Origin: Escherichia virus ESCO5
Lineage: Duplodnaviria > Heunggongvirae > Uroviricota > Caudoviricetes
Reading direction: 5' to 3' (one strand)
Length of the DNA stretch: 64,000 bases
Virus record (IMG/VR): IMGVR_UViG_2974610597_000001
The notes under the pieces were generated by a model. It worked only from the letters and a program-made list of their open reading frames with translations, made no database searches and was not told the origin of the DNA. The stretch's first letter is position 1, and each line of letters opens with the position of its first letter. The position numbers were made by a program, and so were the translations under genes. Positions 11,032 through 58,344 of the stretch are shown here, in pieces.

Positions 11032-13704
11032 ATGTTTCCAATTCCAATATTTACTATTATGACCAGCACTGGTGTCGTTCCTCTGCCAGCAGGTATTGTT
11101 AAAAAAGTAATCACTCTAGATTACCCAGATAATGCTGGCAATTCTAATAGCAGTTTAGCAATTTTGCTTAATGATGGTAGATTGTTTACTCAAGGCGCAA
11201 ACCTTTTTGGTGAGATTGCAGATGGAACTCGTAGTGCACGATTCAATAATTTCCACTTAGCTTCTACTGTAGTAGCGGATGTGTTTACCGCAGATCGTTG
11301 TTTTGTTATTAAAACTAACAGTGGGGGATGGCAATATTCAGGATTGACAGCAGGGTTGGTAGGATCTATAGCAGCAGGTGGTACGGATGCATGTGTAACT
11401 ACTTGGACCAGCTTTCCATCTGTAATAACAGGGACTATCTCTTTAGCCAATCTTAAAGAGGTTAAGGGAGGATATAACAACACTCTCTGGTTGATGAATA
11501 GTGGTGTTCTTTATGGATCAGGTCAAAACACAGTAGGCAGTTTAGGTGCAAGTACTACTAACGAAGTTTCTACTCCTCGTCAGATAACAAGTGCAGCAGT
11601 TGCTTTTGATGCAGGTTACAACCAATGCTCTTATGTCAACAATGTGGGAACCTTGCGTGTTTGTGGGGCTAGTAAAGGTTTAGCAGGTAATAATAACACA
11701 ACAACAGCTTTTGTCAATGCCAAGATATCCGCTACTGAAACAGTGTATGTCAAAGATTACATCAATACAGTTTCCCAGACAATAGTTGTAGGAGATACCT
11801 CCGGTGGCACGGGTACAGTAAACTACTTATATGTTAGATCTAATACAGAAACAACCTACACTAAACTGGACACCTTTGCAGCAGGTTTCTCAACATGGAA
11901 ATTTCCACCAAGCCGCCACTCTTTTTTCGTTGGGATCAATAATTCCTTGTGGGCTATTGGTAAGAACTACACTGCAAACTTAGGTTTGGGGTATGATTCT
12001 GCGAGCGGAGATCCACTCCAAGTGGGAAAACCAGTTAAACCTGAAGGAGTGGGTTCCTGGGATATAAACAAGCTCACAAGCGTTCATACACTGAATATGG
12101 ATGTTACTAACCAATTAGGTTATCAAGGAACCTTTTTCGTTTATAATGGAGATATGTATTATTCAGGTATTTGGAAAGATGGGAAAGCCTCGTATCTGTT
12201 CAATAGTGGTCTAAACTATAATAAATTCACACCAATAGCAAGCTCCGTGATTACAGGGGATGTTCTGGCAACTGGCTTAACTACAGATTCTTTAGGAATT
12301 TGTATTGTAGGTGGAACTAAACAGTTGACACATTCTGTTAGCCCAGAAGGAGGTAAACTTTTCAATATTAAATACACTTCTTCTGCCCCTGCAAACATGA
12401 CAATATCATCTACTGGTTTAATGACTTTCCATGCAGAAGGTGGTTTTGATGCAGGTATGACAGCCTTAAACGCTGAAGGAACAATTTTATCAGATACCTC
12501 TGGAGGATATGCTTCAACATTGAGTGTTTACACCCCTAGCTTATCTGCGATGGATGTAGGAACAACACAAACAATGGTAGCAGAAATAACACCAACAGGA
12601 GCAGCAAGCTTACCTGATATGGTTGTTGAGTATACAACTACAGATCCTAATGTTGCTACAGTAGATCCTACAACTGGTGTAATAACTGGTGTTGGTGATG
12701 GTGGTTGTAGGATTGGTTGCACAGCTACGTATCAAGGTGTTGTTACCGCTTCTGATAGTTCTTATTTAACGGTGAATGCTGTTGCGGGAAAGGAGTTAGC
12801 TCCATCTCCGAGTAGTAGTTTAACGGTTCTAAACGGATATTTCAACCACTCGGCAGATGGGGCAATTACGTTCCCAACTTTATCGGGTACTGTTACACCA
12901 GCTAACTTTGTAGTTAAGGTGGATGACGTTGTAGTTCCTTCAAGTAAAGTAATATTTAGAAACAAAGCTTTCTCTACAGTGGATAGTTATCCAGCAGGAG
13001 AATATAGACTGGCTATTGAATTTGCAAGTGCTTCAGTAGTTAATAGTGTGGAAGTGTCTATGGAAGCAAACCCAAGTCTTTTAGAACTTTGGGGCGGTAA
13101 TAGAATCAGTTATTCTACAAGCCCAGCCTCACAATTCTTAAAAGGTTGTGCTAACTTAAGACGAATAACTTCTGATTGTTTTAGTAACACATCTTACACC
13201 GGAACATCTATAAGCGGTATCTTCTCTGGCTGCACAAGTTTGACAGCTATCCCTGAAGGATTATTCAGTGATGCTTTATTTCCTTCAATGACAACAATGT
13301 CAAGCACGTTTGAAGGTTGTACATCTTTAACATCTATTCCTTCAGATTTATTTAAGAATCTGTCAAAAGTTACAAGATATTCTTACACCTTTAAAGATTG
13401 CACCTCTCTTGCAGAAGTTCCAGCAGGAATGTTTGATAATATTCCAACGAAAGTGACCTCTTTAACAGCTACATTCCAAGGTTGTTTAGGACTTACAGAT
13501 TTTAATAAGATCTTTAATGACAACCCAGGGTTAACTGTTTGTGGTAAACGTGGAGCATTATCTTCTTTCTTTAGTGGATGCACAAATCTTACAGGAACAG
13601 GAACAACATTAACAAATACATTAGGCGGAGTAGCTAATAGTTACCTATTCAGGTATTGCACAAAACTTTCTGATTATAACAACATTCCTTCCGGTTATAA
13701 ATAA
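11032..13704 (+). CDS. Tail fiber/receptor-binding protein with Big_2-like Ig domain and C-terminal BspA-type leucine-rich repeats
   Basis: 890 aa; VATVDPTTGVITGVGDGGCRIGCTATYQG (Big_2-like); C-terminus has 5+ repeats of F-x-GC-T-S/N-L-T-x-I/V-P (FSGCTSLTAIPEGLF, FEGCTSLTSIPSDLF, FKDCTSLAEVPAGMF, FQGCLGLTDF, FSGCTNLTGT). Confidence 0.55.
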   Translation: MFPIPIFTIMTSTGVVPLPAGIVKKVITLDYPDNAGNSNSSLAILLNDGRLFTQGANLFGEIADGTRSARFNNFHLASTVVADVFTADRCFVIKTNSGGWQYSGLTAGLVGSIAAGGTDACVTTWTSFPSVITGTISLANLKEVKGGYNNTLWLMNSGVLYGSGQNTVGSLGASTTNEVSTPRQITSAAVAFDAGYNQCSYVNNVGTLRVCGASKGLAGNNNTTTAFVNAKISATETVYVKDYINTVSQTIVVGDTSGGTGTVNYLYVRSNTETTYTKLDTFAAGFSTWKFPPSRHSFFVGINNSLWAIGKNYTANLGLGYDSASGDPLQVGKPVKPEGVGSWDINKLTSVHTLNMDVTNQLGYQGTFFVYNGDMYYSGIWKDGKASYLFNSGLNYNKFTPIASSVITGDVLATGLTTDSLGICIVGGTKQLTHSVSPEGGKLFNIKYTSSAPANMTISSTGLMTFHAEGGFDAGMTALNAEGTILSDTSGGYASTLSVYTPSLSAMDVGTTQTMVAEITPTGAASLPDMVVEYTTTDPNVATVDPTTGVITGVGDGGCRIGCTATYQGVVTASDSSYLTVNAVAGKELAPSPSSSLTVLNGYFNHSADGAITFPTLSGTVTPANFVVKVDDVVVPSSKVIFRNKAFSTVDSYPAGEYRLAIEFASASVVNSVEVSMEANPSLLELWGGNRISYSTSPASQFLKGCANLRRITSDCFSNTSYTGTSISGIFSGCTSLTAIPEGLFSDALFPSMTTMSSTFEGCTSLTSIPSDLFKNLSKVTRYSYTFKDCTSLAEVPAGMFDNIPTKVTSLTATFQGCLGLTDFNKIFNDNPGLTVCGKRGALSSFFSGCTNLTGTGTTLTNTLGGVANSYLFRYCTKLSDYNNIPSGYK

Positions 13705-13706
13705 GA

Positions 13707-13734
13707 AAAGGAGCCATTTGGCTCCTTTCTTTTA
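13707..13734. terminator. Bidirectional Rho-independent terminator between convergent structural (+) and replication (-) blocks
   Basis: Hairpin AAAGGAGCC-ATTT-GGCTCCTTT flanked by A-run upstream and T-run downstream. Confidence 0.55.
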
Positions 13735-13760
13735 TAAAAACTCTTTATAAATCAATAAGA

Positions 13761-14648
13761 TCAGAACGGAATATCATCATCGAAGTCCATCGGAGGTTCT
13801 TCTTGATTACTTGGAGTTGGTTCTGGTTGTGGTTCAGGCTTTTTAACTTCTTTCTTCTCTTCTTTCTTAGGTTGTTCTGCGGAACCACGAATGGCAGCAG
13901 CAACTTTATCAGACAGAGCCAGAACTTTACGAGCAGAATCAATCAGATCTTCTACAGATACAGTCTTAATGGTATGGTCTTTACAAGCATTAAGGATAGC
14001 GTGACCAACAGATGCCCCAAGATCATAATCATTAATATCAACGCCACGAGATTCAGCAATTTCAGATTTCAGCGTGACAGTTGCAGATTGAACAACCCCA
14101 GCGATATCGAAAGCATCGCCTTTAACACCATTACGAATCAGTTCCAGTGCACCATTTACTGCGTGACCAGTTTCCAGACCTACAGTATCACGTTTTTTAT
14201 AGGACTGTTTAGGAGCAGCATCGTTGGAACCTTTATTGCCAGAAGATTTGTTAGACTTCTGAACACCATCGGTAGACAATACTGTAATACGAGATTTTTT
14301 AGTATTGTAGTAAGTTTTACCGCCTTTATTATCAACGCGATCAATATCAATACTTACTTCTACACCTTTTTCAATAGTGATCCAGTTATCACCTTCTTTG
14401 ACTTGCAGGTTTTCATAACCTTCTTTCAGTTCAATGTCACCAAGAGAAATCCAAACACCTTTCTCCTCTGGTTTAGCACCTTTCTCTTTCAGAACAAGAG
14501 AAGCTCGGTGAGTTGAAACAATCGTTTTTCCTTCCCAATGAAAAGTTTTAGGTTCAGCGAATTTATCCAGTTTAACGTAGTCTACGATACCAGTTGCATA
14601 AGTTACGGTTTTGCCTTTACGATCAGTTTCAGTATTAATTACGGACAT
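13761..14648 (-). CDS. ssb: Single-stranded DNA-binding protein
   Basis: 295 aa; Gly/Ser/Lys-rich linker and acidic C-terminal tail ending MDFDDDIPF, the canonical SSB partner-binding tail. Confidence 0.6.
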   Translation of the reverse strand: MSVINTETDRKGKTVTYATGIVDYVKLDKFAEPKTFHWEGKTIVSTHRASLVLKEKGAKPEEKGVWISLGDIELKEGYENLQVKEGDNWITIEKGVEVSIDIDRVDNKGGKTYYNTKKSRITVLSTDGVQKSNKSSGNKGSNDAAPKQSYKKRDTVGLETGHAVNGALELIRNGVKGDAFDIAGVVQSATVTLKSEIAESRGVDINDYDLGASVGHAILNACKDHTIKTVSVEDLIDSARKVLALSDKVAAAIRGSAEQPKKEEKKEVKKPEPQPEPTPSNQEEPPMDFDDDIPF

Positions 14649-14664
14649 TATTATCTCCTCTATA

Positions 14665-15057
14665 TTACATTAATTTTGCACAGAAAGAGCGGAGTCTTTC
14701 CATATCATCTTGCTCTAACAGGTATTTACCTTTACCTATTCCAACTCCAATTTCACCGTTAGGGAAATGAACTATTTGCACTGGAAAACCTCCGAGTTTA
14801 ATTGTGGCAGCTTTGCCTTCTTCGTCTATAACGTTTCGGATTGTATCTTGCAGTGAAATGAATTCTTTGTTTGTAACAGTGGCTTCAATTATTTCAGAGG
14901 TTTCAACACGAGCCGTTAGCTTCTTGTCTCCACCTTGAATAATCAAAATTTGAAAATAAAAAGAGTTGTCAAGACCTACAACATTTTTCTCAACTAGTGT
15001 CAAACTGGTATAATTTCCATAAACAGTTTCAACAGCTATTTTAGAACGTTCAGTCAT
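14665..15057 (-). CDS. Hypothetical protein
   Basis: 130-aa ORF downstream of nucleotidyltransferase-like gene, same strand. Confidence 0.35.
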   Translation of the reverse strand: MTERSKIAVETVYGNYTSLTLVEKNVVGLDNSFYFQILIIQGGDKKLTARVETSEIIEATVTNKEFISLQDTIRNVIDEEGKAATIKLGGFPVQIVHFPNGEIGVGIGKGKYLLEQDDMERLRSFCAKLM

Positions 15058-15102
15058 TGAATGCTATCCTATCATAAAATGTTTAATATTGTCAAGCTTT
15101 AA

Positions 15103-15696
15103 TTACCAAGGAATATCTTCTTCTTCCAATTTGGTATCTACTTGAGGTGGACGTGGAACCTTAACCTCTTTAACAAAACGAAGATATGGAAAACGTGTAG
15201 CGATTTTAATAACATGTTTGGCATCTTCTCTAACATCTTTGTGCAAGAAGCAGATCCCTGTTTCCAAAGTTGTTTCAAAATCTTTAGAGTAATAACAATC
15301 CTTTCCATCAAATGCAGCCTGGCAGATGGACAGATCAAACTCATTCAGAAAGGTTGTCATTACATTTGGGTCCATAATCATAAGGTTGCAAAGCTGACCG
15401 TCACGTTCAAATTCAAAAACGTGTTTAAGACCAGTAACACCCTCGTAGTTATCAGAAGCCTCTTTGTTTCCTAGCTTACGAACATTAGTTCCCATTAAAG
15501 CAGATGCAATTAGTTCTTGTATTTGCTCTTCTGATCGATGTGCAGGAAGTGACGTATAGAAATCCAGATCACGTCCAGCAATATCAAGAATACGCCAATC
15601 ACGAACAGCACCGCCAGCCAAGACAGAATTAGGATCAGCGATCTTTAAGACAGTAAGAATTTCTTTGGCAATGTTGATTTGTTTTGATTTAGTCAT
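15103..15696 (-). CDS. Minimal nucleotidyltransferase-fold protein (Pol-beta superfamily, CCA-enzyme-like head motif)
   Basis: 197 aa; GGAVRDW ... DLDFYT matches the GG(A/S)VRD + DxD head motif of tRNA nucleotidyltransferase/polyA polymerase family; acidic C-terminal tail EEEDIPW resembles the SSB tail. Confidence 0.5.
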   Translation of the reverse strand: MTKSKQINIAKEILTVLKIADPNSVLAGGAVRDWRILDIAGRDLDFYTSLPAHRSEEQIQELIASALMGTNVRKLGNKEASDNYEGVTGLKHVFEFERDGQLCNLMIMDPNVMTTFLNEFDLSICQAAFDGKDCYYSKDFETTLETGICFLHKDVREDAKHVIKIATRFPYLRFVKEVKVPRPPQVDTKLEEEDIPW

Positions 15697-15907
15697 TGAT
15701 ACGCTCCACAGTTACTTTAACAATATCGTCCATATTAATCTCATCTCCCAAGACTTCAATAACACCTTCCTCATAAAGTCGAGCACATTCTTCCCATACT
15801 TCTGCTTCCGTCATTCCACCTTCAATCTTATTTGCAAGACCTTTAATAACATCTTCATTTTGTTCATCAATAAGAATTGAAACATTAAAGCTCACTAGTT
15901 TACGCAT
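15689..15907 (-). CDS. Small acidic hypothetical protein
   Basis: 72-aa ORF, start/stop overlaps with neighbours. Confidence 0.3.
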   Translation of the reverse strand: MRKLVSFNVSILIDEQNEDVIKGLANKIEGGMTEAEVWEECARLYEEGVIEVLGDEINMDDIVKVTVERIND

Positions 15908-16084
15908 TGTTTTCTCCTTATACCTCTAAACGGAAAGTTTCTTTAGATACAAAATCGTATCCACCTTTTTCAAGCCAGTCATTGTAAACCTCATCAGCTT
16001 GAGACTCTATCATAAAATACCGAGTGGTAATTTCGTCTCCGACAATACGCACAATTTTATAGCAAATCATGATACCATTTCCCA

Positions 16085-16276
16085 TTAATCTTCCTCCAGA
16101 TCAATTTCATTATAGCAATGTATGCAGTAGCCATCGTTGTGCATATGTTGTTCATAAGACATATCTTTACCACAAGACCAACAACGAATATCGCCATCGT
16201 CCCATTCACGTTCTTCTTCGCCTTCAAATGCATCTGGTAGGTAAGGCATACCAAGACAATCTAAATCGTAATGCAT
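16085..16276 (-). CDS. Small zinc-ribbon protein
   Basis: Start refined to ATG at 16276 (AGGAGG 6 nt upstream; the longer ORF 16085..16360 would run through the upstream hairpin); CWSCG ... CIHC pattern. Confidence 0.35.
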   Translation of the reverse strand: MHYDLDCLGMPYLPDAFEGEEEREWDDGDIRCWSCGKDMSYEQHMHNDGYCIHCYNEIDLEED

Positions 16277-16283
16277 ATCTCCT

Positions 16284-16308
16284 CCTATAAAGGGGCAGAA
16301 GCCCCTTA
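16284..16308 (-). terminator. Stem-loop/weak terminator downstream of DNA polymerase gene
   Basis: AAGGGGC-TTCT-GCCCCTT hairpin followed by short T tract on minus strand. Confidence 0.35.
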
Positions 16309-16325
16309 TAAAACAATATGTTAGA

Positions 16326-19300
16326 TCAATGACAGGATGCCCAGGAATTACCCACGTCATATCCGGCAGTAAGCTGAACGTTAAGATTGTAAAATTCTCC
16401 AGCCTTAGTAACAGCTAAAGCAGCAAGTTCACCTGCCCGACTATAAGCTGTAAACCATCCACCTTTGGGAGATTCATGAATGTTAGCCCAAATTTGCCCT
16501 GTCTCTTTTTCCTTATTATGCTTCCATTCTTCAACTTTAGCAAGGCATTCTTTATCAATTTTCTTTTGTTCTTCAGGATCGTCTACTTTCTTCCAACCTA
16601 ATGATTCAGGTGAAAACCATTTGAATTCTACAAGGTTACGAGAAACTTCAAGCTGGGCTTCATCGTGGTATGCAATCATTTGTTGCACGAAGTCTTTATT
16701 CTTCCAGTCATCTTTAAAGAAGTCAACACTTAGTCCTTCTTCTTCGATCATATCGTCATAAATAACCATTGCACGTTTAGCACAGATAACCCCACCACTT
16801 TGGAACAGAGAGTTAAGAATCGCGTGAGCAGAACGAGTAGGAACCTTACGACCGTCAATACCCAAAACATACTGTTTACCAGTCTTAACCCAGAAATCGT
16901 TTAAACGTTCTTTAAGACGCGCCAGTGGGAATGCAGCTTCCCAGAAAGCATCGAACACCAGTTGCCCTGTAAACTTATCGCTACCAATTGTTTTAGCAAC
17001 CTTGTCGGCTTGTGCACCATAGGTAATACCATACTTAACAGATTTAGCAGGACTACGTTCAAATTTACGTCCAATAGTTTCAGTGATACGTTTTGCCATC
17101 ATGGTATGAACATCGTTAGGCTTCTCTAACAAGAGAGCGTTACAGTATTCATGAGGCTCCGGTTCGTAGCGCCAACAGTTTCCTGTGATGGTAATGCAGT
17201 CTTTCTGACGCATGACCCACGTACCAAGTTCTGTTTGTGGACACCAAACATCCTCTACACCCCACTCTTCAATAGTCAAACTTTGAACAGGAATGTGAGA
17301 GCGGTTAGCCAATGTTACCACTTTTACTTTCTGCTCTTTTGTATTGAAAGCTACAGAGATATTGCCTCCATGCACCAGGTACGAGGCAGTTAAAGCTGCT
17401 TCAAAAAGTTCACCTGGGTTCTGCGCCCAACGCCAAACAGGTTTTTGTTTATGTTCATGCCAGTAACCATCTGCAATCAAGAAACCTTCCAAGAAAGCTA
17501 CACGCTCGGCATGAGACATATTAACTACACGCTCTACCCACGGAACATCCCATTTACCTTGTTGAACAGAAGTTAAACTATTTACCTGATCTTGTTCCAT
17601 GTTAAATGGAGCATTACAAATAATATTATCTCCTGTGCAAAGCTCGGCAGTTGTTCTGACTTTAGGCACATAAGTATTCCCTTTACTACGGGTATTAACA
17701 TACCAACGGTGATCTGCTGTTGCACGGTAAGTGTGTGATTTCCCTTTAATCTCAAACGTCTTACTATTTTTATAGAAGACCTTACCTTTTACTTTAGTCC
17801 ATTCTTTCAGACCTGTTTCAGCATTGTACCCTAAAATCTCATCCCCTTCCTTCAGGTCGTGATATCCTACCCAACCTTTACGAGTCAAAGCTTGAGCATC
17901 CATCGGCACACAGTAATGCGACTCAATCTTTGCTTCCAAAGAGTCGAAGTCATAACCGATCTGGAAATATTTAGGAACTTCTACACCAAACAAGTTACGC
18001 ATCTCCCATCCAAACAAAGATGTGACACGAGGGATATTGGCTACAGACCTATGCTTCATACGAGAGGTTGCAGCATCACATGTAGCGGCTGGGGTAGGAA
18101 TACGCCCATCTGCCCTTACTGCGGCTAAGAAACCTTTATCGTATTCTTGATCTTCTTCATCTTCTTCCCAATCAGCACCGCCACCTAAAATAGAGTTCCT
18201 ACGATGCTTATACGTTAAGTATTCTACAATCTGAGTAGCATAAGGAAATTTCTCACCCAAAGCTTGCAGGTTAGGACAGATTTCTTTTTCCTGACCTTTG
18301 GTAAAACATGGGTTAGTCAATACTTTAAGACCGCGACCTTTACCTTTTGCTATACGCTCTTGAATCTTCCTTTCCAAGGTTTCCGGTGCGCACTCCAGAT
18401 GATCACAACGGTCCTGACAAAAATTAGAAGATAAAGTTTGCTCAACGTAAGCTCGAATACCTTTCTGAAGTTCTTCCTCACTCTTTTTAATCTTGGTGCC
18501 AGATTTAAGAGTCAAATCTTTATCTTTATATTCCGATGGTACCCAACCTAATCCTACAAGCCAGTTTTTAATATGGGTTGTATCGTTCAATGTCGCAGGG
18601 ATGTTAGGATCACACAGAGGCTCATCTGCTGCAACTGGCAGTTTCCACTCTTTCCCCAACATAACTAACCACCAATCGCCATCCCTCTCTTCCAAATGAC
18701 CATCATGTTTTTTAGCAAAATTGATCATATGGTTAGTTGGTTCGAGGTTCTTTTTAATTTGCAATTTAGGCGGAATAAAAGCTTTAAGATAACCTTTTGT
18801 TGCTGGTTTAGGTGGCAAAATAGGCTCAACGAGTAAACGAAGACGCTCCATTTCTGCATCCAAAAAAGCAAGGTTCTCTTCTGCTTGCTTCATATTAAAA
18901 GCAAACCCACGGTGTTCCTGGCGCGTGATAATGTCTGCTACACGTTGTTCAAGTTCAAATGGACCTTCCCATTTATCATAATCACCCCATTCTTCCATAA
19001 GGTAGTTATATACGCTCGTATTGGCTTTGTTGTCATAGATACAGTAATAAAGCATATCCGCAGCAAAAGTCTTAAATCGATCTTCTTCTGGAATCTCTTT
19101 ACGGAAATCTATTTTTACATCACCACCTGCTTTTCGAGAAAGTGCTGCCAAGCTATGTCCTGATTTGCCCTCAATCTTTCGATCTGGGTTTAACACTTTA
19201 CTCAAAATCAAGGAGTCAATAAGTTTTACCTTATTTTTGCCCCACGTATTATATTTAACACTGTAATCTAATCCATAAAACAGTTTTGTAGCCAACCAGT

Positions 19301-19658
19301 CGTAGTTGATACCGTTGTGAGCCACAGCCATTTCAACCAGATATTCAGGCTTGTCTTTAAAATAACCTTCATGATTAATAAAGTCTGGGAAATCTTTTAG
19401 TTGAAAATGCGTGTAATCTTGCGCCACATACTCTTTAAGAACATATGTATATTTACCATCTGACTCTTCATAAGGACGCCCATCAAAGATGTATTTAGGG
19501 CCATCGTGGAAAGCTACTATTTCTCCTGTTTCATGGTTCTCTAAGACAATACAGTGCATTTGAAATGTGTCTTTGAGACGATAAGGACTAGCTAAATAAT
19601 CAATAGTGTCATTATTCAACAATCCGTTTGCTTCAATATCCCATGTAAACTTACTCAC
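16326..19658 (-). CDS. Family A DNA polymerase with 3'-5' exonuclease domain, interrupted by an intein
   Basis: 1110 aa; exo motif WDIEANGL; pol motif A IGYDFDSLEAKI; motif B RSPAKSVKYGITYG; motif C AYHDE; about 245-aa insertion between motifs A and B. Confidence 0.85.
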   Translation of the reverse strand: MSKFTWDIEANGLLNNDTIDYLASPYRLKDTFQMHCIVLENHETGEIVAFHDGPKYIFDGRPYEESDGKYTYVLKEYVAQDYTHFQLKDFPDFINHEGYFKDKPEYLVEMAVAHNGINYDWLATKLFYGLDYSVKYNTWGKNKVKLIDSLILSKVLNPDRKIEGKSGHSLAALSRKAGGDVKIDFRKEIPEEDRFKTFAADMLYYCIYDNKANTSVYNYLMEEWGDYDKWEGPFELEQRVADIITRQEHRGFAFNMKQAEENLAFLDAEMERLRLLVEPILPPKPATKGYLKAFIPPKLQIKKNLEPTNHMINFAKKHDGHLEERDGDWWLVMLGKEWKLPVAADEPLCDPNIPATLNDTTHIKNWLVGLGWVPSEYKDKDLTLKSGTKIKKSEEELQKGIRAYVEQTLSSNFCQDRCDHLECAPETLERKIQERIAKGKGRGLKVLTNPCFTKGQEKEICPNLQALGEKFPYATQIVEYLTYKHRRNSILGGGADWEEDEEDQEYDKGFLAAVRADGRIPTPAATCDAATSRMKHRSVANIPRVTSLFGWEMRNLFGVEVPKYFQIGYDFDSLEAKIESHYCVPMDAQALTRKGWVGYHDLKEGDEILGYNAETGLKEWTKVKGKVFYKNSKTFEIKGKSHTYRATADHRWYVNTRSKGNTYVPKVRTTAELCTGDNIICNAPFNMEQDQVNSLTSVQQGKWDVPWVERVVNMSHAERVAFLEGFLIADGYWHEHKQKPVWRWAQNPGELFEAALTASYLVHGGNISVAFNTKEQKVKVVTLANRSHIPVQSLTIEEWGVEDVWCPQTELGTWVMRQKDCITITGNCWRYEPEPHEYCNALLLEKPNDVHTMMAKRITETIGRKFERSPAKSVKYGITYGAQADKVAKTIGSDKFTGQLVFDAFWEAAFPLARLKERLNDFWVKTGKQYVLGIDGRKVPTRSAHAILNSLFQSGGVICAKRAMVIYDDMIEEEGLSVDFFKDDWKNKDFVQQMIAYHDEAQLEVSRNLVEFKWFSPESLGWKKVDDPEEQKKIDKECLAKVEEWKHNKEKETGQIWANIHESPKGGWFTAYSRAGELAALAVTKAGEFYNLNVQLTAGYDVGNSWASCH
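17178..17912 (-). mobile_element. Intein (Hint domain with LAGLIDADG homing-endonuclease motif) inside DNA polymerase
   Basis: Residues about 583-827 of the polymerase: starts Cys (CVPMDAQALT, block A), block B TADHRWY, LAGLIDADG-like LEGFLIADGY, ends ITGN followed by Cys; flanks ESHY / CWRYEPEPHEY..NDVH align to the contiguous T7-type motif A to motif B linker. Confidence 0.55.
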
Positions 19659-20959: not shown

Positions 20960-20988
20960 TATTTTTAATAAAAGGGCCGAAGCCCTTA
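20960..20988 (-). terminator. Rho-independent terminator after primase-helicase gene
   Basis: Minus-strand hairpin AAGGGC-TTCG-GCCCTT followed by TTTTATTAAAAA. Confidence 0.5.
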
Positions 20989-22764
20989 ATAATTGCTATC
21001 CGTAGGCAAATTAGCAGGATTGTTGAAATACTGCTCTTTGTCATGCAGAGTTGCAGTTCTAATGTCATAGTAAAACTGCCCTGCCGGACCAGTTTCCGAG
21101 AACTCACGGTTTTTTAGGATAAAGCAATGAGTCGTATTGCGTTCTACAGGGTCTTCAGCGGCTTTATCTCGTTCCAAAGCCAAGGTAATACCAGCACCTT
21201 TAGCCAAGAAACTACTACCCATTGCATCGTCCTCTGTTAAGTGTTCATTGCCACCATTAGCCGATTTCTTAACGTGTGAGATGACGATAATAGTTATAGC
21301 ATACTCTTTCATGATGCGCTTCAACCATGTTGCTAACTCTTCCTGGGCTTGAACATCCATACCAGAAAGCAAATCAGAATAAGGGTCGATAACAAGAATT
21401 GTTACTCCAAAATAGATGATCATCTCCAAAACTTTTTCTTTGATAGACTCCACATCTGCTCCACGATCATCACACACATAAAAACGTGGTGATCCATCTT
21501 CTCTTTCGTAAAAATCCAGGATTTTTTCTTTATTCTCTTCCAAGATTTGAAATTTCTCTTCCGGTGTTTTCCTGTGTAGAGGAATATGCAGGAACGAGGA
21601 CAACAGGTTACGAGAATATTTCTTATAAGTTGCTTCCAAGGACAGAATACCTAGGGTATGTTCTGGGTGCGCAACAATAATATGTTTGGTGATCTCGTTC
21701 ACCATCAAAGTTTTACCGATACTGGTCTTTGCCAGGATGACTGTAATCTCTTCCTCTACTAAACCACCACCCAGCATATTTGCAGCAACACGCATAAAAG
21801 GAGGCAAGGTAATCATCTTGGATTCCAAGCATTCTAATGCAGCTTCATACAAGACATTAGAAGCATAAACACCTGCTGGGGTGTATAGACGAGCACTCCA
21901 AAAAGCTTTTACGAAATCTTTTGCACGACCTTCTTCCAGATACTGATTGGCATCCTTAAGATCCATCTGCATACGATAGACTTTGTTACGAGGCAGCACC
22001 TTAACAATATTTTCAAATGCCTCATTACCTGCTTTGTCGTTATCCATGCAAACAATAATCTTCTTAAATTTTTCAAAGAAAGGATATTGTGCCTGAACTT
22101 GTTTATACATACTGGTTTCACCAGTTGTGCCACTTACTACGGCTGGAAGCTCATATTTACTGTCCAAGTTTTCAGATAGCATTTGATAAGCTGCCAGAGC
22201 ATCGTGTTCACCACCTGTAATTACAACAGTATGAGAACGGTCTGCAAAACGAATTTGTCCAAAAAGATCTACATCTTTACCTACTTGACCAATAGGTTTA
22301 CTGAAATCTTTAGGATGAATACGACGCTTAAAACCAACCAATTCTTTACCGATGGTAGTCGGATATAAACAACTTTCTACTACCATCTGATCTCCTTCCT
22401 GACGGTATTCATAACGAACACCATAGAAAGATGAAACTTTTTCTTTAATGCCTCGATAACCACGTGGGTTGGTTGATGTTTCTTGAACAATTTTACGATG
22501 AATCTGTTTATTAAATTCCGAACCCACAATCTCCTCCTCTTCTTCTAAAACTTCACCATTTTCTCGTAACCATTCTACGCTAGGAATAGTGTATTCACAC
22601 GCAAAGCACTTAGCACCTTTATGCTCTCCATTAGAATCTAATCCGTAAACCATCAGGTTATTACGAGAGCGATCCTTGCCATTTTTCATGCAGCGCGGAC
22701 AACCTGTATGTCCTTCCTTGCTAAGATCAACATCAAATCCATATTTAGTTATAATGTGCGACAC
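20986..22764 (-). CDS. Bifunctional DNA primase-helicase (T7 gp4-like)
   Basis: 592 aa; N-terminal zinc ribbon CPRC...CFAC, TOPRIM-like middle, C-terminal DnaB-type helicase with Walker A (AKTSIGKT) and Walker B-like (VLVIDPYSD). Confidence 0.8.
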   Translation of the reverse strand: MSHIITKYGFDVDLSKEGHTGCPRCMKNGKDRSRNNLMVYGLDSNGEHKGAKCFACEYTIPSVEWLRENGEVLEEEEEIVGSEFNKQIHRKIVQETSTNPRGYRGIKEKVSSFYGVRYEYRQEGDQMVVESCLYPTTIGKELVGFKRRIHPKDFSKPIGQVGKDVDLFGQIRFADRSHTVVITGGEHDALAAYQMLSENLDSKYELPAVVSGTTGETSMYKQVQAQYPFFEKFKKIIVCMDNDKAGNEAFENIVKVLPRNKVYRMQMDLKDANQYLEEGRAKDFVKAFWSARLYTPAGVYASNVLYEAALECLESKMITLPPFMRVAANMLGGGLVEEEITVILAKTSIGKTLMVNEITKHIIVAHPEHTLGILSLEATYKKYSRNLLSSFLHIPLHRKTPEEKFQILEENKEKILDFYEREDGSPRFYVCDDRGADVESIKEKVLEMIIYFGVTILVIDPYSDLLSGMDVQAQEELATWLKRIMKEYAITIIVISHVKKSANGGNEHLTEDDAMGSSFLAKGAGITLALERDKAAEDPVERNTTHCFILKNREFSETGPAGQFYYDIRTATLHDKEQYFNNPANLPTDSNY

Positions 22765-22776
22765 TTTGTTCTCCTG

Positions 22777-23055
22777 TTAAAATGGTTCGTTAGTCTCCAT
22801 CATATATTCTGCTTCTAGTTCTTCCATGTGCTTTCTAAATTGGAAAGCAATTTCTGCTACAGTTACATTTAAATCTTTTTCAAAAACTTCTGTAGATCCT
22901 TCATAAAAACGAATACCGTCAATTAAAAGCCCTCCGTGGTAATCCCAATCGCTTTCACGAGAAAGTGGATTAGGTTCTTCATAATAGTAATCCACCTCCA
23001 CAACCAAGGCTTTCCCGTTACGAGTGGTGTATTCAAAATCAAAAGTGTTAATCAT
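22777..23055 (-). CDS. Hypothetical protein
   Basis: 92-aa ORF; stop overlaps downstream start. Confidence 0.35.
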   Translation of the reverse strand: MINTFDFEYTTRNGKALVVEVDYYYEEPNPLSRESDWDYHGGLLIDGIRFYEGSTEVFEKDLNVTVAEIAFQFRKHMEELEAEYMMETNEPF

Positions 23056-38124: not shown

Positions 38125-38349
38125 TTAAAATGGAAGTCTTTGAAGTTCATCTCCTCCGATATCAAGTAATTTAGCAACATCTCGATCAGAAAGCAACTCT
38201 TTTCTTTGTAAAATATCCACAAGGGTTGCAAGAATGTCCTTAACGTCCCGATCACTGTTCTTCAAAAGTTCTCCTGCCGTCCCTACCCTATCTCCTACAG
38301 CAAAATATGTAACCATAAAACCTCCTACGCTAATCTGATTGCCAACCAC
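38125..38349 (-). CDS. Small hypothetical protein
   Basis: 74-aa ORF downstream of nrdG. Confidence 0.3.
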   Translation of the reverse strand: MVGNQISVGGFMVTYFAVGDRVGTAGELLKNSDRDVKDILATLVDILQRKELLSDRDVAKLLDIGGDELQRLPF

Positions 38350-56185: not shown

Positions 56186-56436
56186 GACGCGCAGGGGCGG
56201 TGTTTGTCTCGCGCTCCCGTGTCCCCTCGCCATGTAATAAGAATAACAGATCCAGCCAGGAAAGCAAGCGATTATTTTATCTTTACATTTCTTTACAAAT
56301 ATATAGCGCCCAGCCTACCGGCGATCAACCTTCCAACCAGCGCCCTGGTATGTTAGCCCCGCCTTTACGCCGTGGGGGTGGCGCTTCCTCTTCTGTATGT
56401 AAAACAGTATAAGCCCGATCCCTGGGCTTGTCAAGA

Positions 56437-56703
56437 TTATTTTTTGTTTTCTTGCCAGGATAGGACACCTAACCAAAAATGCATATCGCCCCGCGCCCCT
56501 GGTGGGATCTTGCTTTCCCCGCCGCCACTGCAAGCCCATAAATAACCATCAGCGAACGGATCAAAGTTTTCTATTTCTTCCACCTTATGATCGCCCAGGT
56601 TGAGAACTGTTTCAACCTTTAAGCCCGTTGCGCTTGCTACCTGGTGCACCGTGCCGCCTTGCCAGCCTAATGAGTGCATAAGGTGTAATGTAGTATTCGT
56701 CAT
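56437..56703 (-). CDS. Hypothetical protein encoded in GC-rich island, opposite strand to flanking genes
   Basis: 88-aa ORF MTNTTLHLMHSLGWQGGTVHQVASATG...; ATG at 56703 preceded by AAAGAAAGGG; local GC clearly above phage average. Confidence 0.3.
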   Translation of the reverse strand: MTNTTLHLMHSLGWQGGTVHQVASATGLKVETVLNLGDHKVEEIENFDPFADGYLWACSGGGESKIPPGARGDMHFWLGVLSWQENKK

Positions 56704-56811
56704 GGTGTCGCCCTTTCTTTGTTGTGCGCCCTGGTTGGCGCGGTAGAAAGATGATAGCCCTTTCTTTTATATATAGCAAGCAAAAAGAAAATAAAAAGAT
56801 TGAAAAAGTGA

Positions 56812-56870
56812 TTGACGTTCGCCAGGTGGCGGCATAATATTTACCACGTAGGGCGGCAATGGTGCCGCTC
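56812..56870 (+). promoter_or_regulatory. Promoter-hairpin cassette 1
   Basis: TTGACG - 17 nt - TAATAT, then TTACCACGTA and hairpin GGGCGGCA-ATGG-TGCCGCTC. Confidence 0.55.
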
Positions 56871-56889
56871 ATTATTTGGAGTTAAAATC

Positions 56890-57087
56890 ATGGCAACATT
56901 GCACATTGTGGCGAAAGCTGGACAAATAAACGTGGTAGTAAACGGTTTTACTGAGTTCAGTCATCCCCAGGATGATCATGAAACGGTTTTATCTTTCATT
57001 GATTCTCTGTTAGAAATGGGAGTCATTACAGAAGACCAGCACGCTACAAAATGCAAGCGCGTTAATCAAATTGCAGGGATAGAATAA
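56890..57087 (+). CDS. Small early-type protein
   Basis: Start refined to ATG 56890 (SD GGAG upstream); ORF-track start 56812 would lie within the promoter. Confidence 0.4.
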   Translation: MATLHIVAKAGQINVVVNGFTEFSHPQDDHETVLSFIDSLLEMGVITEDQHATKCKRVNQIAGIE

Positions 57088-57093
57088 AAAGTA

Positions 57094-57155
57094 TTGACAA
57101 CAAACAACAACCTGATAAGATGTATCACATAGGGCGGCGGAATGGTCCACCGCTC
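57094..57155 (+). promoter_or_regulatory. Promoter-hairpin cassette 2
   Basis: TTGACA - 16 nt - TAAGAT, then GTATCACATA and hairpin GGGCGGCGG...CCACCGCTC. Confidence 0.5.
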
Positions 57156-57178
57156 ACAACAGAAGAGAGATTATAATC

Positions 57179-57451
57179 ATGGCATCATATAGCGCAACAA
57201 TGATCGTAGCTGGCACCACTGGTAAACCTATGAGCGGTGGCGGATCTTTCGCAAATATCAACATTGACGGGCGTTTATCCCTGGACGCAGCGATCACCGT
57301 GGCGCGGGAAACATTTAAGAAAGAATGTAAATTCAATAAACAAGATTATCTCGGTTTTGCTATTGAAAAAACCGCGCGCTTTGTTGATTATAAAAGCCCG
57401 AAGATGGTTGATACTACACTAAAAGCGCAAGATGTAGCGTTTTTGCTTTAA
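57179..57451 (+). CDS. Small early-type protein
   Basis: 90-aa ORF after SD AGAGAGA. Confidence 0.4.
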   Translation: MASYSATMIVAGTTGKPMSGGGSFANINIDGRLSLDAAITVARETFKKECKFNKQDYLGFAIEKTARFVDYKSPKMVDTTLKAQDVAFLL

Positions 57452-57454
57452 GGC

Positions 57455-57510
57455 TTGACATTAACGAATAATTTGTTAATATGTTACATAAAGCGGGAAT
57501 AGTTCCCGCT
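57455..57510 (+). promoter_or_regulatory. Promoter-hairpin cassette 3
   Basis: TTGACA - 17 nt - TAATAT, hairpin AGCGGGAA-TAG-TTCCCGCT. Confidence 0.5.
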
Positions 57511-57527
57511 ATTTGTAAGGTGGTAGA

Positions 57528-57785
57528 ATGTTTTACATCAAATTAAAAGGTCACGTGATCGCGTTCAAAGATAACGCTTTTTACAGATTAGCAAAATATG
57601 CGTTAATACATCCCCACTATGTTTATATAAGGGGGCGTGATGAAATAAATATCTTTGATCAAACAACATGCGAGAACATCGAGATCCGCAAGGTTGGCGT
57701 ACGTGATTATCGTACATCTTTCTACCCTTGCAAGGATTCAGCAAGTCTTTTTAAAGTATGCCAATTGTTGAAAAAAGGTGGTTAA
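57528..57785 (+). CDS. Small early-type protein
   Basis: 85-aa ORF after SD AAGGTGG. Confidence 0.4.
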   Translation: MFYIKLKGHVIAFKDNAFYRLAKYALIHPHYVYIRGRDEINIFDQTTCENIEIRKVGVRDYRTSFYPCKDSASLFKVCQLLKKGG

Positions 57786-57786
57786 T

Positions 57787-58344
57787 ATGGGCCGCGAATA
57801 TGTGATCCAGTCTTGGGTAAAACATGAAGCAGATGATCCGCGCATCATTCCCGATCATCTTATCGATGAATCCACGGGATATAGCGGTGAGCAAATAGGT
57901 AACAGATTAGCACGTAGTAACGGCAACGTAAAAGCGCGTTATGTGCGCCCTGGCTGGCTGGCAAATGGTAACGCTGATTTATCCAGTGCGGAAGATGCGA
58001 GCGACGGCGCGAAAGATAATCCTTTGTACAAAGTTGATCCGGCTTTTCGTGTCCTGGATGAATACCCCAGCAAGATAGCGGCGCTCGATCAGGCCCTGGA
58101 AAGTCAGCGCATCACCTGGACCGCTTACAACATGGCAAAAAACGTACTTGATGGTAAATTGATTCAAGCTGAAAGAAAATTAGCCAAAATTGCAGCCATA
58201 GCCCAGGAGGAAGACGAGGAGACAACGGAAGAGGAAGAGTACGAAGAGATCCCGCCGTTGTTGTGTGTTGATGCTTTTCCTGATTATCAGCCGACAGAGG
58301 AAGAAAAAAGGATCGCACTAGAAAACTTTGAAAATAGTCTTTGA
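57787..58344 (+). CDS. Hypothetical protein with acidic C-terminal region
   Basis: Start refined to ATG 57787 (SD AAGGTGG); Glu-rich stretch QEEDEETTEEEEYEE. Confidence 0.4.
   Translation: MGREYVIQSWVKHEADDPRIIPDHLIDESTGYSGEQIGNRLARSNGNVKARYVRPGWLANGNADLSSAEDASDGAKDNPLYKVDPAFRVLDEYPSKIAALDQALESQRITWTAYNMAKNVLDGKLIQAERKLAKIAAIAQEEDEETTEEEEYEEIPPLLCVDAFPDYQPTEEEKRIALENFENSL

Follow-up and report, generated by a model that had tools for sequence, protein, structure and literature searches.

A predicted mini class II nucleotidyltransferase with an SSB-like C-terminal tip in the replication gene block of Escherichia phage ESCO5

The 64,000-nucleotide stretch of Escherichia virus ESCO5 DNA surveyed in this study (the window) carries on its minus strand, at 15103..15696, an open reading frame (ORF) with an ATG start, which was confirmed to exist and encodes a protein of 197 amino acids, ESCO5_00086. 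The protein begins with MTKSKQ, contains LAGGAVRDWRILDIAGRDLDFYT (with G28-G29, R32-D33 and D43-L-D45) and terminates in KLEEEDIPW. The window corresponds to the ESCO5 record from position 84,347 onward, with the rest of the record joined to it. At window positions 13700-16400 the DNA of Escherichia phage ESCO5 and that of vB_EcoM_REC are 100% identical to the window, and the same region is matched at 95-99% DNA identity by some 60 further phages of the phAPEC8-like kind (Stephanstirmvirinae, Phapecoctavirus). The gene is labelled 'putative tRNA nucleotidyl transferase / poly(A) polymerase' in GenBank and 'nucleotidyltransferase' in RefSeq; being already annotated and a member of a large phage family, it is not in itself a discovery. 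The features within it that bear on its function are as follows.

15103..15696, minus strand: gene of the mini class II nucleotidyltransferase (NTase) ESCO5_00086, 197 amino acids, with the fold as predicted below
15556..15618, minus strand: motif A, residues 27-47 (A-G-G-A-V-R-D-W...D43-L-D45-F-Y), the nucleotide- and metal-binding core, recognised by conservation in 258 family members
15385..15387, minus strand: codon of N104, the position of the canonical third catalytic carboxylate, placed by the family alignment column and by alignment with protein Gp22 of Klebsiella phage fHe-Kpn01
15106..15168, minus strand: disordered linker and acidic-aromatic tip, residues 177-197 (EVKVPRPPQVDTKLEEEDIPW), recognised by model confidence (predicted local distance difference test, pLDDT) and homologue comparison
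15106-15126, minus strand: the tip itself, E191-W197

The initial annotation of this DNA had recognised in the protein the GGAVRD...DLD head motif of CCA-adding and poly(A) polymerase-type NTases, with no strand given; the motif is indeed present, on the minus strand. An assignment from sequence alone was tried and rejected, as the Pfam, NCBIfam and PDB sequence searches reach just this motif (motif A) and stay below threshold. The Pfam PolyA_pol head (PF01743) scored 15.4 bits (E 0.025), under the 23-bit cut-off, and NCBIfam TIGR02692 scored 12 bits against a threshold of 438.8. Motif A aligns to 6IBP, 1MIV, 3AQK and the Escherichia coli proteins Cca and PcnB, and it is the only segment with a sequence alignment to solved CCA-adding enzymes, poly(A) polymerase I (PAP I) or E. 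coli Cca/PcnB; with hhalign just 24-44 residues of Cca and PcnB were aligned, and nothing past motif A. A HMMER alignment to 1MIV that continued past the motif clashed with the topology-based alignment, had low posterior support and was left unused. Since the sequence searches see motif A alone and below their thresholds, a fold comparison was needed.

The structure was modelled by AlphaFold2 (AF2) with a 50-sequence alignment, an earlier run with 12 sequences (pLDDT 64) having been discarded as poor. On this model ESCO5_00086 is predicted to have the head fold of class II (CCA-adding/poly(A) polymerase type) NTases. The mixed beta-sheet/helix fold and the hG[GS] and [DE]h[DE]h motifs of the DNA polymerase beta-like NTase superfamily are all found, and the closest relatives in the fold comparison are CCA-adding enzymes, with template modelling (TM) scores of about 0.25-0.30 when normalised by targets of 344-517 amino acids. 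The fold on which the initial annotation depended, and for which it had proposed profile and structure searches, is therefore the one predicted. The model consists of head and neck only, with one short strand after the neck helix and then a disordered tail. The domains responsible for binding the tRNA acceptor and T-arm (body and tail) are absent from both the model and the fold comparison, which bears out the earlier judgement that the protein is too short for a full CCA enzyme.

Residue conservation was counted over 258 family members. D43 and D45 are each present in 258/258, G28 and G29 each in 257/258, and W34 (254), R32 (251), Y84 (249) and K164 (249) are nearly as constant; the catalytic aspartates, whose loss among homologues would have told against an NTase in the earlier view, are thus invariant. 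The third catalytic carboxylate expected in the h[DE]h strand was not found in the 258-member alignment, in which the N104 column, on a beta-hairpin strand, holds Gln in 201 members, Asn in 44 and Asp or Glu in 10. A profile-profile alignment by hhalign (probability 94.6%, 120 columns) pairs N104 with Asp115 of the fHe-Kpn01 Gp22 clade, within which Asp115 is invariant. N104 is probably equivalent to Glu79 of the Bacillus enzyme, which we take to be the third carboxylate site there; this equivalence draws on strand topology, the Gp22 bridge and the literature rather than on inspected coordinates. E95 on the neighbouring strand was considered as a relocated third carboxylate and might compensate, with partial support: it is acidic in 66% of members, and 78/257 are free of acid at both sites. 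Motif B (RRD, for ribose recognition) and motif D (EDxxR, which serves as amino-acid template for CTP and ATP) are likewise not conserved among the 258 members, positions 118-121 and 157-160 being variable. The corresponding segments of ESCO5_00086, placed by topology and spacing, read NEFDLSICQ and EDAKHVIK, and around them only F120, S123, C125, H/Y161 and K164 are conserved. An amide residue (Asn or Gln) where the third metal ligand should stand speaks against processive 3'-end polymerisation of the ordinary kind, and leaves open transfer of a single nucleotide, a non-nucleic-acid acceptor, or mere nucleotide binding.

Compared with known class II NTases (E. coli poly(A) polymerase I, the CCA-adding enzymes of bacteria and eukaryotes, and enzymes adding CC or A; PDB 1MIV, 3H37, 3WFO, 4WBY, 1OU5, 3AQL), with which it shares 13-17% identity, ESCO5_00086 is half the size and falls outside class II CCA-adding membership on four counts: its curated score is too low, the third carboxylate is replaced, motifs B and D are not conserved, and body and tail are missing. 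It has instead a near-invariant Trp after the RD of motif A (W34) and an SSB-like tail. Two other systems come close: NP_344798.1 (PDB 2LA3, 191 amino acids), a stand-alone 'CCA-adding enzyme head domain', is bacterial, 13% identical and undetected by the family sequence profile, and the FAM46/TENT5 poly(A) polymerases likewise have head and neck only, but are eukaryotic, larger and not close in sequence.

The resemblance that the initial annotation had seen between EEEDIPW and the tail of the neighbouring SSB (single-strand binding protein) has been strengthened. In the model the pLDDT is low from about residue 180, averages 57 over residues 181-190 and is below 50 at residues 188-197. The ten closest homologue clusters (58-97% identity) end in D-D-I-P-W, with one DDSFPW and with EEDIPW in the window protein, and the 12-18 residues preceding the tip vary in sequence and length, with indels; all members of the Phapecoctavirus-type clade end in Trp. 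When 621 stop-to-stop segments of at least 40 amino acids, from all six frames of the window, were scanned for endings of the type [DE]{2,}x0-1[ILVM]P[FWY], only the NTase and the SSB-like protein matched, against a chance expectation of 0.012. These two matches, together with a conserved tip on a variable linker, indicate that the likeness of the tail is not due to chance. Endings in P-[FWY] were found in 5/295 non-nested ORFs of the ESCO5 genome: the NTase, the SSB-like protein, a 92-amino-acid ORF beside the primase/helicase gene, a 74-amino-acid ORF and one that is probably spurious. The 74-amino-acid ORF (38125-38349, minus strand) ends in GGDELQRLPF, another Pro-Phe C-terminus, and has no Pfam family.

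The tip has the features of the SSB C-terminus (SSB-Ct, DFDDDIPF): an acidic run followed by hydrophobic-Pro-aromatic at the free, extreme C-terminus (EEEDIPW-COOH), carried on a predicted disordered and poorly conserved linker. Tip and linker together have the anatomy of a short linear docking motif, as in the SSB C-terminus. On SSB-partner proteins the SSB-Ct peptide is bound by a hydrophobic pocket and a basic ridge. SSB-like proteins of related viral loci end in DDDIPF, DDDVPF, DDSLPF, GDDVPW, DKDIPW or EDTPW, and as some of these end in Trp, the Trp tip is a natural variant of the SSB tail. In phage T7 the DNA polymerase is bound both by the gp2.5 tail and by the gp4 tail, each acidic and with Phe at its end, a precedent for a replisome protein other than the SSB sharing the SSB's tail. 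ESCO5_00086 likewise lies in a T7-type module (PolA and a gp4-like primase/helicase), near an SSB-like protein with the exact host tail; unlike in SSB-Ct and the T7 tails, the carrier is an NTase-fold protein rather than an ssDNA (single-stranded DNA) binder or helicase, and the last residue is Trp, not Phe. Helicases of many related phages with T7-type replisomes also end in acidic residues plus Phe. The gp2.5 tail is the subject of a further paper (PMC10359462).

The genes around the NTase gene are as follows.

22777..23055, minus strand: 92-amino-acid ORF ESCO5_00078, ending in EYMMETNEPF, directly upstream of the primase/helicase gene, with no Pfam family
20986..22764, minus strand: gp4-like primase/helicase (Toprim and DnaB_C), by Pfam and annotation
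16326..19658, minus strand: family A (T7-like) DNA polymerase, upstream in the gene block (Pfam DNA_pol_A, E 2e-11)
14665..15057, minus strand: 130-amino-acid ORF between the NTase and SSB-like genes (phrog_16560, no Pfam match)
13761..14648, minus strand: SSB-like protein ESCO5_00088, 295 amino acids, ending in EPPMDFDDDIPF (PHROG 4477; SSB matches to the tail only)
13706..13729, no strand assigned: bidirectional hairpin terminator with a perfect 10-bp stem, 5 G-C pairs and T-runs on both strands, predicted by consensus scan only

The order on the one strand is primase/helicase, Dam methyltransferase, family A polymerase, three small ORFs, NTase, 130-amino-acid ORF and SSB-like gene, and the order polymerase, NTase, ORF of about 130 amino acids, SSB-like gene is preserved in phi92 and Klebsiella phage KP13-26. 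The terminator sits between the SSB-like gene and a convergent ORF of 890 amino acids resembling a tail fibre (11032-13704), closing the replication block; a promoter scan gave 29 matches against 27.1 expected from shuffled sequence, with no excess. The 130-amino-acid ORF is kept directly downstream of the NTase gene in 8 loci, all Stephanstirmvirinae-like, in each case ahead of the SSB-like gene, and its product is a candidate partner of the NTase or of the SSB-like protein. The 92-amino-acid ORF has a tail of the form ETNE[PS]F or ESNEYF that is kept in six of the retrieved loci (L007, L008, L010-L013), YDNEGF also occurring among related phages, and may be a third tail-bearing component of the replisome. 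The ESCO5 family A polymerase measures 1110 amino acids compared with about 860 in phage KP13-26, and its DNA_pol_A match covers residues 845-1009 only; residues ~590-830 look like an inserted intein or homing-endonuclease-like segment.

The neighbour at 13761..14648 had been called an SSB from the start, and this stands as regards its tail and its GenBank annotation, the last 12 residues being identical to the C-terminus of E. coli SSB. As regards its body the name did not hold: no OB-fold (oligonucleotide/oligosaccharide-binding) domain was recognised there and no Pfam SSB match was found, and the NCBIfam, PHROG and PDB (E. coli SSB) matches cover only the last ~26-49 residues. Judged by sequence, the protein is recognisable as an SSB from the tail and the annotation only, its body of about 250 amino acids falling in PHROG 4477, a label with no function, and the product may be an ssDNA-binding protein of a non-canonical kind, its tail copied from that of the host SSB. 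In phi92 gp156 (locus L002, 8026-8973) DFDDDIPF is followed by 17 more residues (APIGLQYGRNFLHCF), so that the motif is internal; this could reflect a frameshift, an annotation issue or a masked tail.

The NTase belongs to a widespread phage family. PHROG matches were obtained to phrog_10174 (E 4.2e-63) and phrog_1614 (E 8.2e-12), both 'nucleotidyltransferase', and a family profile search found 1047 cluster representatives at E <=1e-3, nearly all stand-alone among the matches listed. PF26128 is a precomputed label, not a direct score, carried by the 60%-identical protein P0009 and by the homologues of Gp22. Two hundred retrieved members measure about 175-257 amino acids (5th to 95th percentile), and no Pfam domain was found in the extra regions of ten longer ones. 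A viral structure library yielded 125 matches, many of them proteins of 167-230 amino acids that bear the name 'nucleotidyltransferase' or 'PolyA pol head domain'. Their phages infect Pseudomonas (LKD16), Pectobacterium, Dickeya, Caulobacter, Aeromonas, Yersinia and Vibrio, ICP1 ORF223 being among the Vibrio phage proteins. Beyond these NTase labels no match has a functional name, and no functional study was found in the literature, where the search for a characterised phage mini-NTase, for SSB-tail mimics on phage proteins other than SSBs and for PF26128 gave nothing decisive. ORF223 of Vibrio phage ICP1 (locus L004, 4956-5369) has 137 amino acids and contains the head domain up to F-x-x-S-x-C, with ORF224 absent from the annotation downstream; the ICP1 NTase gene may be split or truncated.

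Replication genes recur beside these NTases. In 63 viral loci with distinct NTases, counting same-strand neighbours within 5 kb, a gp4-like primase/helicase was found in 38, a family A polymerase in 30, and a cluster of ~717 amino acids resembling a second, unannotated polymerase type in 8. Other recurrent neighbours are SSB-like genes, homing endonucleases and a FEN-like exonuclease. In a 47-kb vibriophage of the Zobellviridae the homologue follows a 5'-3' exonuclease. Small 'tRNA nucleotidyltransferases' have been reported in 37/46 Pectobacterium Autographiviridae, with function unknown there and with the gene mapped between the helicase region and the DNA polymerase (PMC7693777). For Drulisvirus the reference phage KP34 has no annotated NTase, and fHe-Kpn01 was taken instead; expression of its Gp22 (182 amino acids) in E. 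coli is toxic, and a published model of the protein is NTase-like (PMC7291057). The Gp22 gene directly follows, and overlaps, the DNA polymerase gene. Gp22 is a distant relative of ESCO5_00086, its homologues carrying the PF26128 label as do close relatives of the latter. The phage mini-NTases (phi92 gp158, ICP1 ORF223, fHe-Kpn01 Gp22, the Pectobacterium PP47 and Q19 NTases and LKD16) thus share a size of ~170-230 amino acids, the fold and a position among replication genes; the DDIPW tip is specific to the Phapecoctavirus-type clade, and the Gp22 clade retains Asp where the ESCO5_00086 clade has Asn or Gln.

From these observations a mechanism may be proposed. ESCO5_00086 would be a stripped-down class II NTase that keeps the head and neck, the catalytic module binding Mg-NTP, without the body and tail that hold tRNA. 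In the Phapecoctavirus-type proteins a flexible linker with an acidic Ile-Pro-Trp tip would replace the RNA-binding platform and imitate the docking peptide of SSB, plugging the enzyme into pockets that read SSB tails. Such pockets would lie on the phage's T7-like DNA polymerase or primase-helicase, by analogy with T7, and/or on host proteins that partner SSB, so that nucleotidyl transfer or nucleotide binding would take place at replication forks or on ssDNA coated with SSB, and not at free tRNA. The proposal that the tip docks the NTase to SSB-tail receptors (phage polymerase or primase-helicase and/or host SSB clients) for action at forks or SSB-coated ssDNA is put forward tentatively as the likeliest of the readings, its chance of being right being somewhat below even; docking and action at the replisome are the parts that we infer. 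Recruitment to SSB-binding sites, one of several roles suggested in the initial annotation, is accordingly the reading best supported by the evidence, the binding itself being predicted.

Several points weigh against this proposal. The SSB-like tip is limited to one clade and most of 79 viral homologues are without it; phi92 gp158 ends in NNEEFKI and the KP13-26 homologue in AWDHL, and the truncated ICP1 ORF223 has no SSB-like tip either. A tip confined to one clade cannot explain the function of the whole family. Taken as a family-wide feature the tip had to be given up, as no co-variation of NTase tips and SSB tails was seen outside the Phapecoctavirus clade among 80 viral loci: where the SSB ends in DIPW or DVPW, the NTases have no such tip, the exception perhaps being loci L013-L017, where an NTase ending in PDVFNF stands beside an SSB ending in DDDIPF. 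With the third carboxylate missing, the protein might be a poor catalyst or none, and the Trp of the tip, in place of Phe, may be unsuited to the pockets for SSB-Ct in the host. In T7-like phages the replication or 'class II' gene block also holds anti-host genes (gene maps in PMC7693777), so that a position in this block is not decisive. Gp22 is toxic to E. coli even when produced by itself (PMC7291057), which speaks for a target in the host that is independent of a phage replisome.

Even so, the whole family is enriched in aromatic C-termini, Phe or Trp being terminal in 28% of the 200 retrieved members, and Phe, Trp or Tyr in 29% of 258, against a background of 7% (Phe or Trp) among ESCO5 ORFs. 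Tips of the IP[FWY] or acidic-aromatic kind (ESIPY, NNIPF, DDGIPF, PDDIPW, EDFEF, SDDDF) occur in separate branches, which suggests that docking tails were acquired repeatedly.

The protein might instead be a minimal enzyme that repairs or matures the CCA 3' end of tRNAs, so that those of the phage or the host can still be charged in the infected cell, its tail being incidental. The nearest fold relatives are indeed CCA-adding enzymes, the GenBank annotation agrees, ESCO5 carries 10 tRNA genes and putative RNA ligase and phosphatase genes, and one distant relative (L040) lies beside a cluster of 17 tRNA genes. The acidity of the domain, considered as an argument against RNA binding, was rejected because residues 1-200 of E. 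coli Cca, its head and neck, are equally acidic. Against this reading stand the missing tRNA-binding domains in a protein of 197 amino acids, the Asn or Gln at the third carboxylate, and the unconserved motifs B and D, the latter forming the 'protein template' for the nucleotide. The gene lies inside the replication operon, ~42 kb from the tRNA and RNA ligase region, with no tRNA gene in the window; CCA is encoded in all 10 phage tRNA genes; no tRNA gene was found within 10 kb at 40/49 homologue loci; and the host has its own Cca. Autographiviridae, to our knowledge, rarely carry tRNA genes. Relatives of the NTase have been reported in many of these phages (PMC7693777). This structural and genomic evidence leaves tRNA repair, which the initial annotation had listed first, weakened and unlikely.

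The ESCO5 tRNA genes and a nearby cluster (putative RNA ligase, metallophosphatase and 'anti-restriction nuclease') were located at record positions 56193-58204 (L091, 6193-8204) and 49.5-52 kb (L090/L091), and the ligase and phosphatase cluster could form a module for RNA repair distinct from the NTase. Six loci that are otherwise poor in tRNA genes (L022, L025, L033, L066, L085 and L086) each have one tRNA-Arg(TCT) gene at most 10 kb from the NTase, L033 also having a predicted suppressor-like tRNA with anticodon CTA.

The toxicity of Gp22 suggests another explanation, namely a host-directed RNA-tailing enzyme or toxin (like PcnB or MenT) acting on the 3' ends of host RNA or tRNA for translation shut-off, RNA decay or nucleotide salvage. 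The Gp22 clade keeps Asp where ESCO5_00086 and its clade have Asn or Gln, so what holds for Gp22 toxicity may not hold for this clade; a basic surface for RNA binding is not evident, the domain having an isoelectric point of 5.6 compared with 9.6 for PcnB; and the conserved SSB-like tip would be left unexplained. This explanation, too, appears improbable.

A tail-guided transferase of nucleotidyl groups (e.g. AMP) to a protein or small molecule, modifying SSB-client or replisome proteins or a nucleotide-derived signal (anti-defence), would suit the acceptors left open by the Asn/Gln site. The argument for it is purely one from absence, every one of the closest relatives by structure polymerises RNA 3' ends, the 63 loci showed no neighbouring genes related to defence and no support was found in the literature; we regard it as quite unlikely. 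Much the same slim chance is given to a bolder form of the docking proposal, in which a class II NTase with two aspartates plus an amide, unable to polymerise RNA canonically, would be docked by its SSB-mimicking tip to the replisome or to host SSB clients and would there add a nucleotide to the side chain of a protein or to the end of a DNA or primer; by extension all members of the mini-NTase family would act as factors of the replication fork, not as tRNA enzymes.

Least probable of those considered is a dead nucleotide-binding protein or decoy, whose tail would compete with SSB tails and so block or re-route host SSB partners, or regulate the phage SSB, with the NTase-like domain as scaffold or sensor, since D43 and D45 (258/258) and G28-G29 (257/258) are kept in a family of >1000 clusters, a constraint typical of active metal-NTP sites, and most members are without such a tail. 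The remaining probability falls to functions outside these readings.

Two points appear to be new, no description of either having been found in the literature: the conserved SSB-Ct-like tip on an NTase, clade-specific and selected, and the substitution of the third carboxylate throughout the family, together with linkage to a replication module. Hundreds of phages, including Stephanstirmvirinae, many Autographiviridae, ICP1 and Zobellviridae, have a small gene annotated as 'tRNA nucleotidyltransferase', and this annotation is probably misleading because the tRNA-binding elements and the canonical third residue are lacking and primase/helicase and polymerase genes accompany the NTase. A routine annotation thereby becomes a specific, testable hypothesis on a widespread phage protein, for which the SSB-tail mimic of the Phapecoctavirus proteins provides a testable handle that predicts particular binding partners. 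As the phages in question are candidate biocontrol agents against avian-pathogenic E. coli (PMC5374246), an enzyme that has gone unrecognised and may be toxic has practical interest too.

If docking through the tip is correct, the family would gain a function, the T7 principle of a shared acidic-aromatic docking tail would extend to a different class of enzyme, and a phage protein would be found tapping into, or competing for, the bacterial SSB interaction hub. Should the bolder form with transfer to a protein or primer end prove true, it would represent a novel means by which a phage regulates or sabotages that hub, and ESCO5_00086 would be the founding 'SSB-tail-addressed' nucleotidyltransferase.

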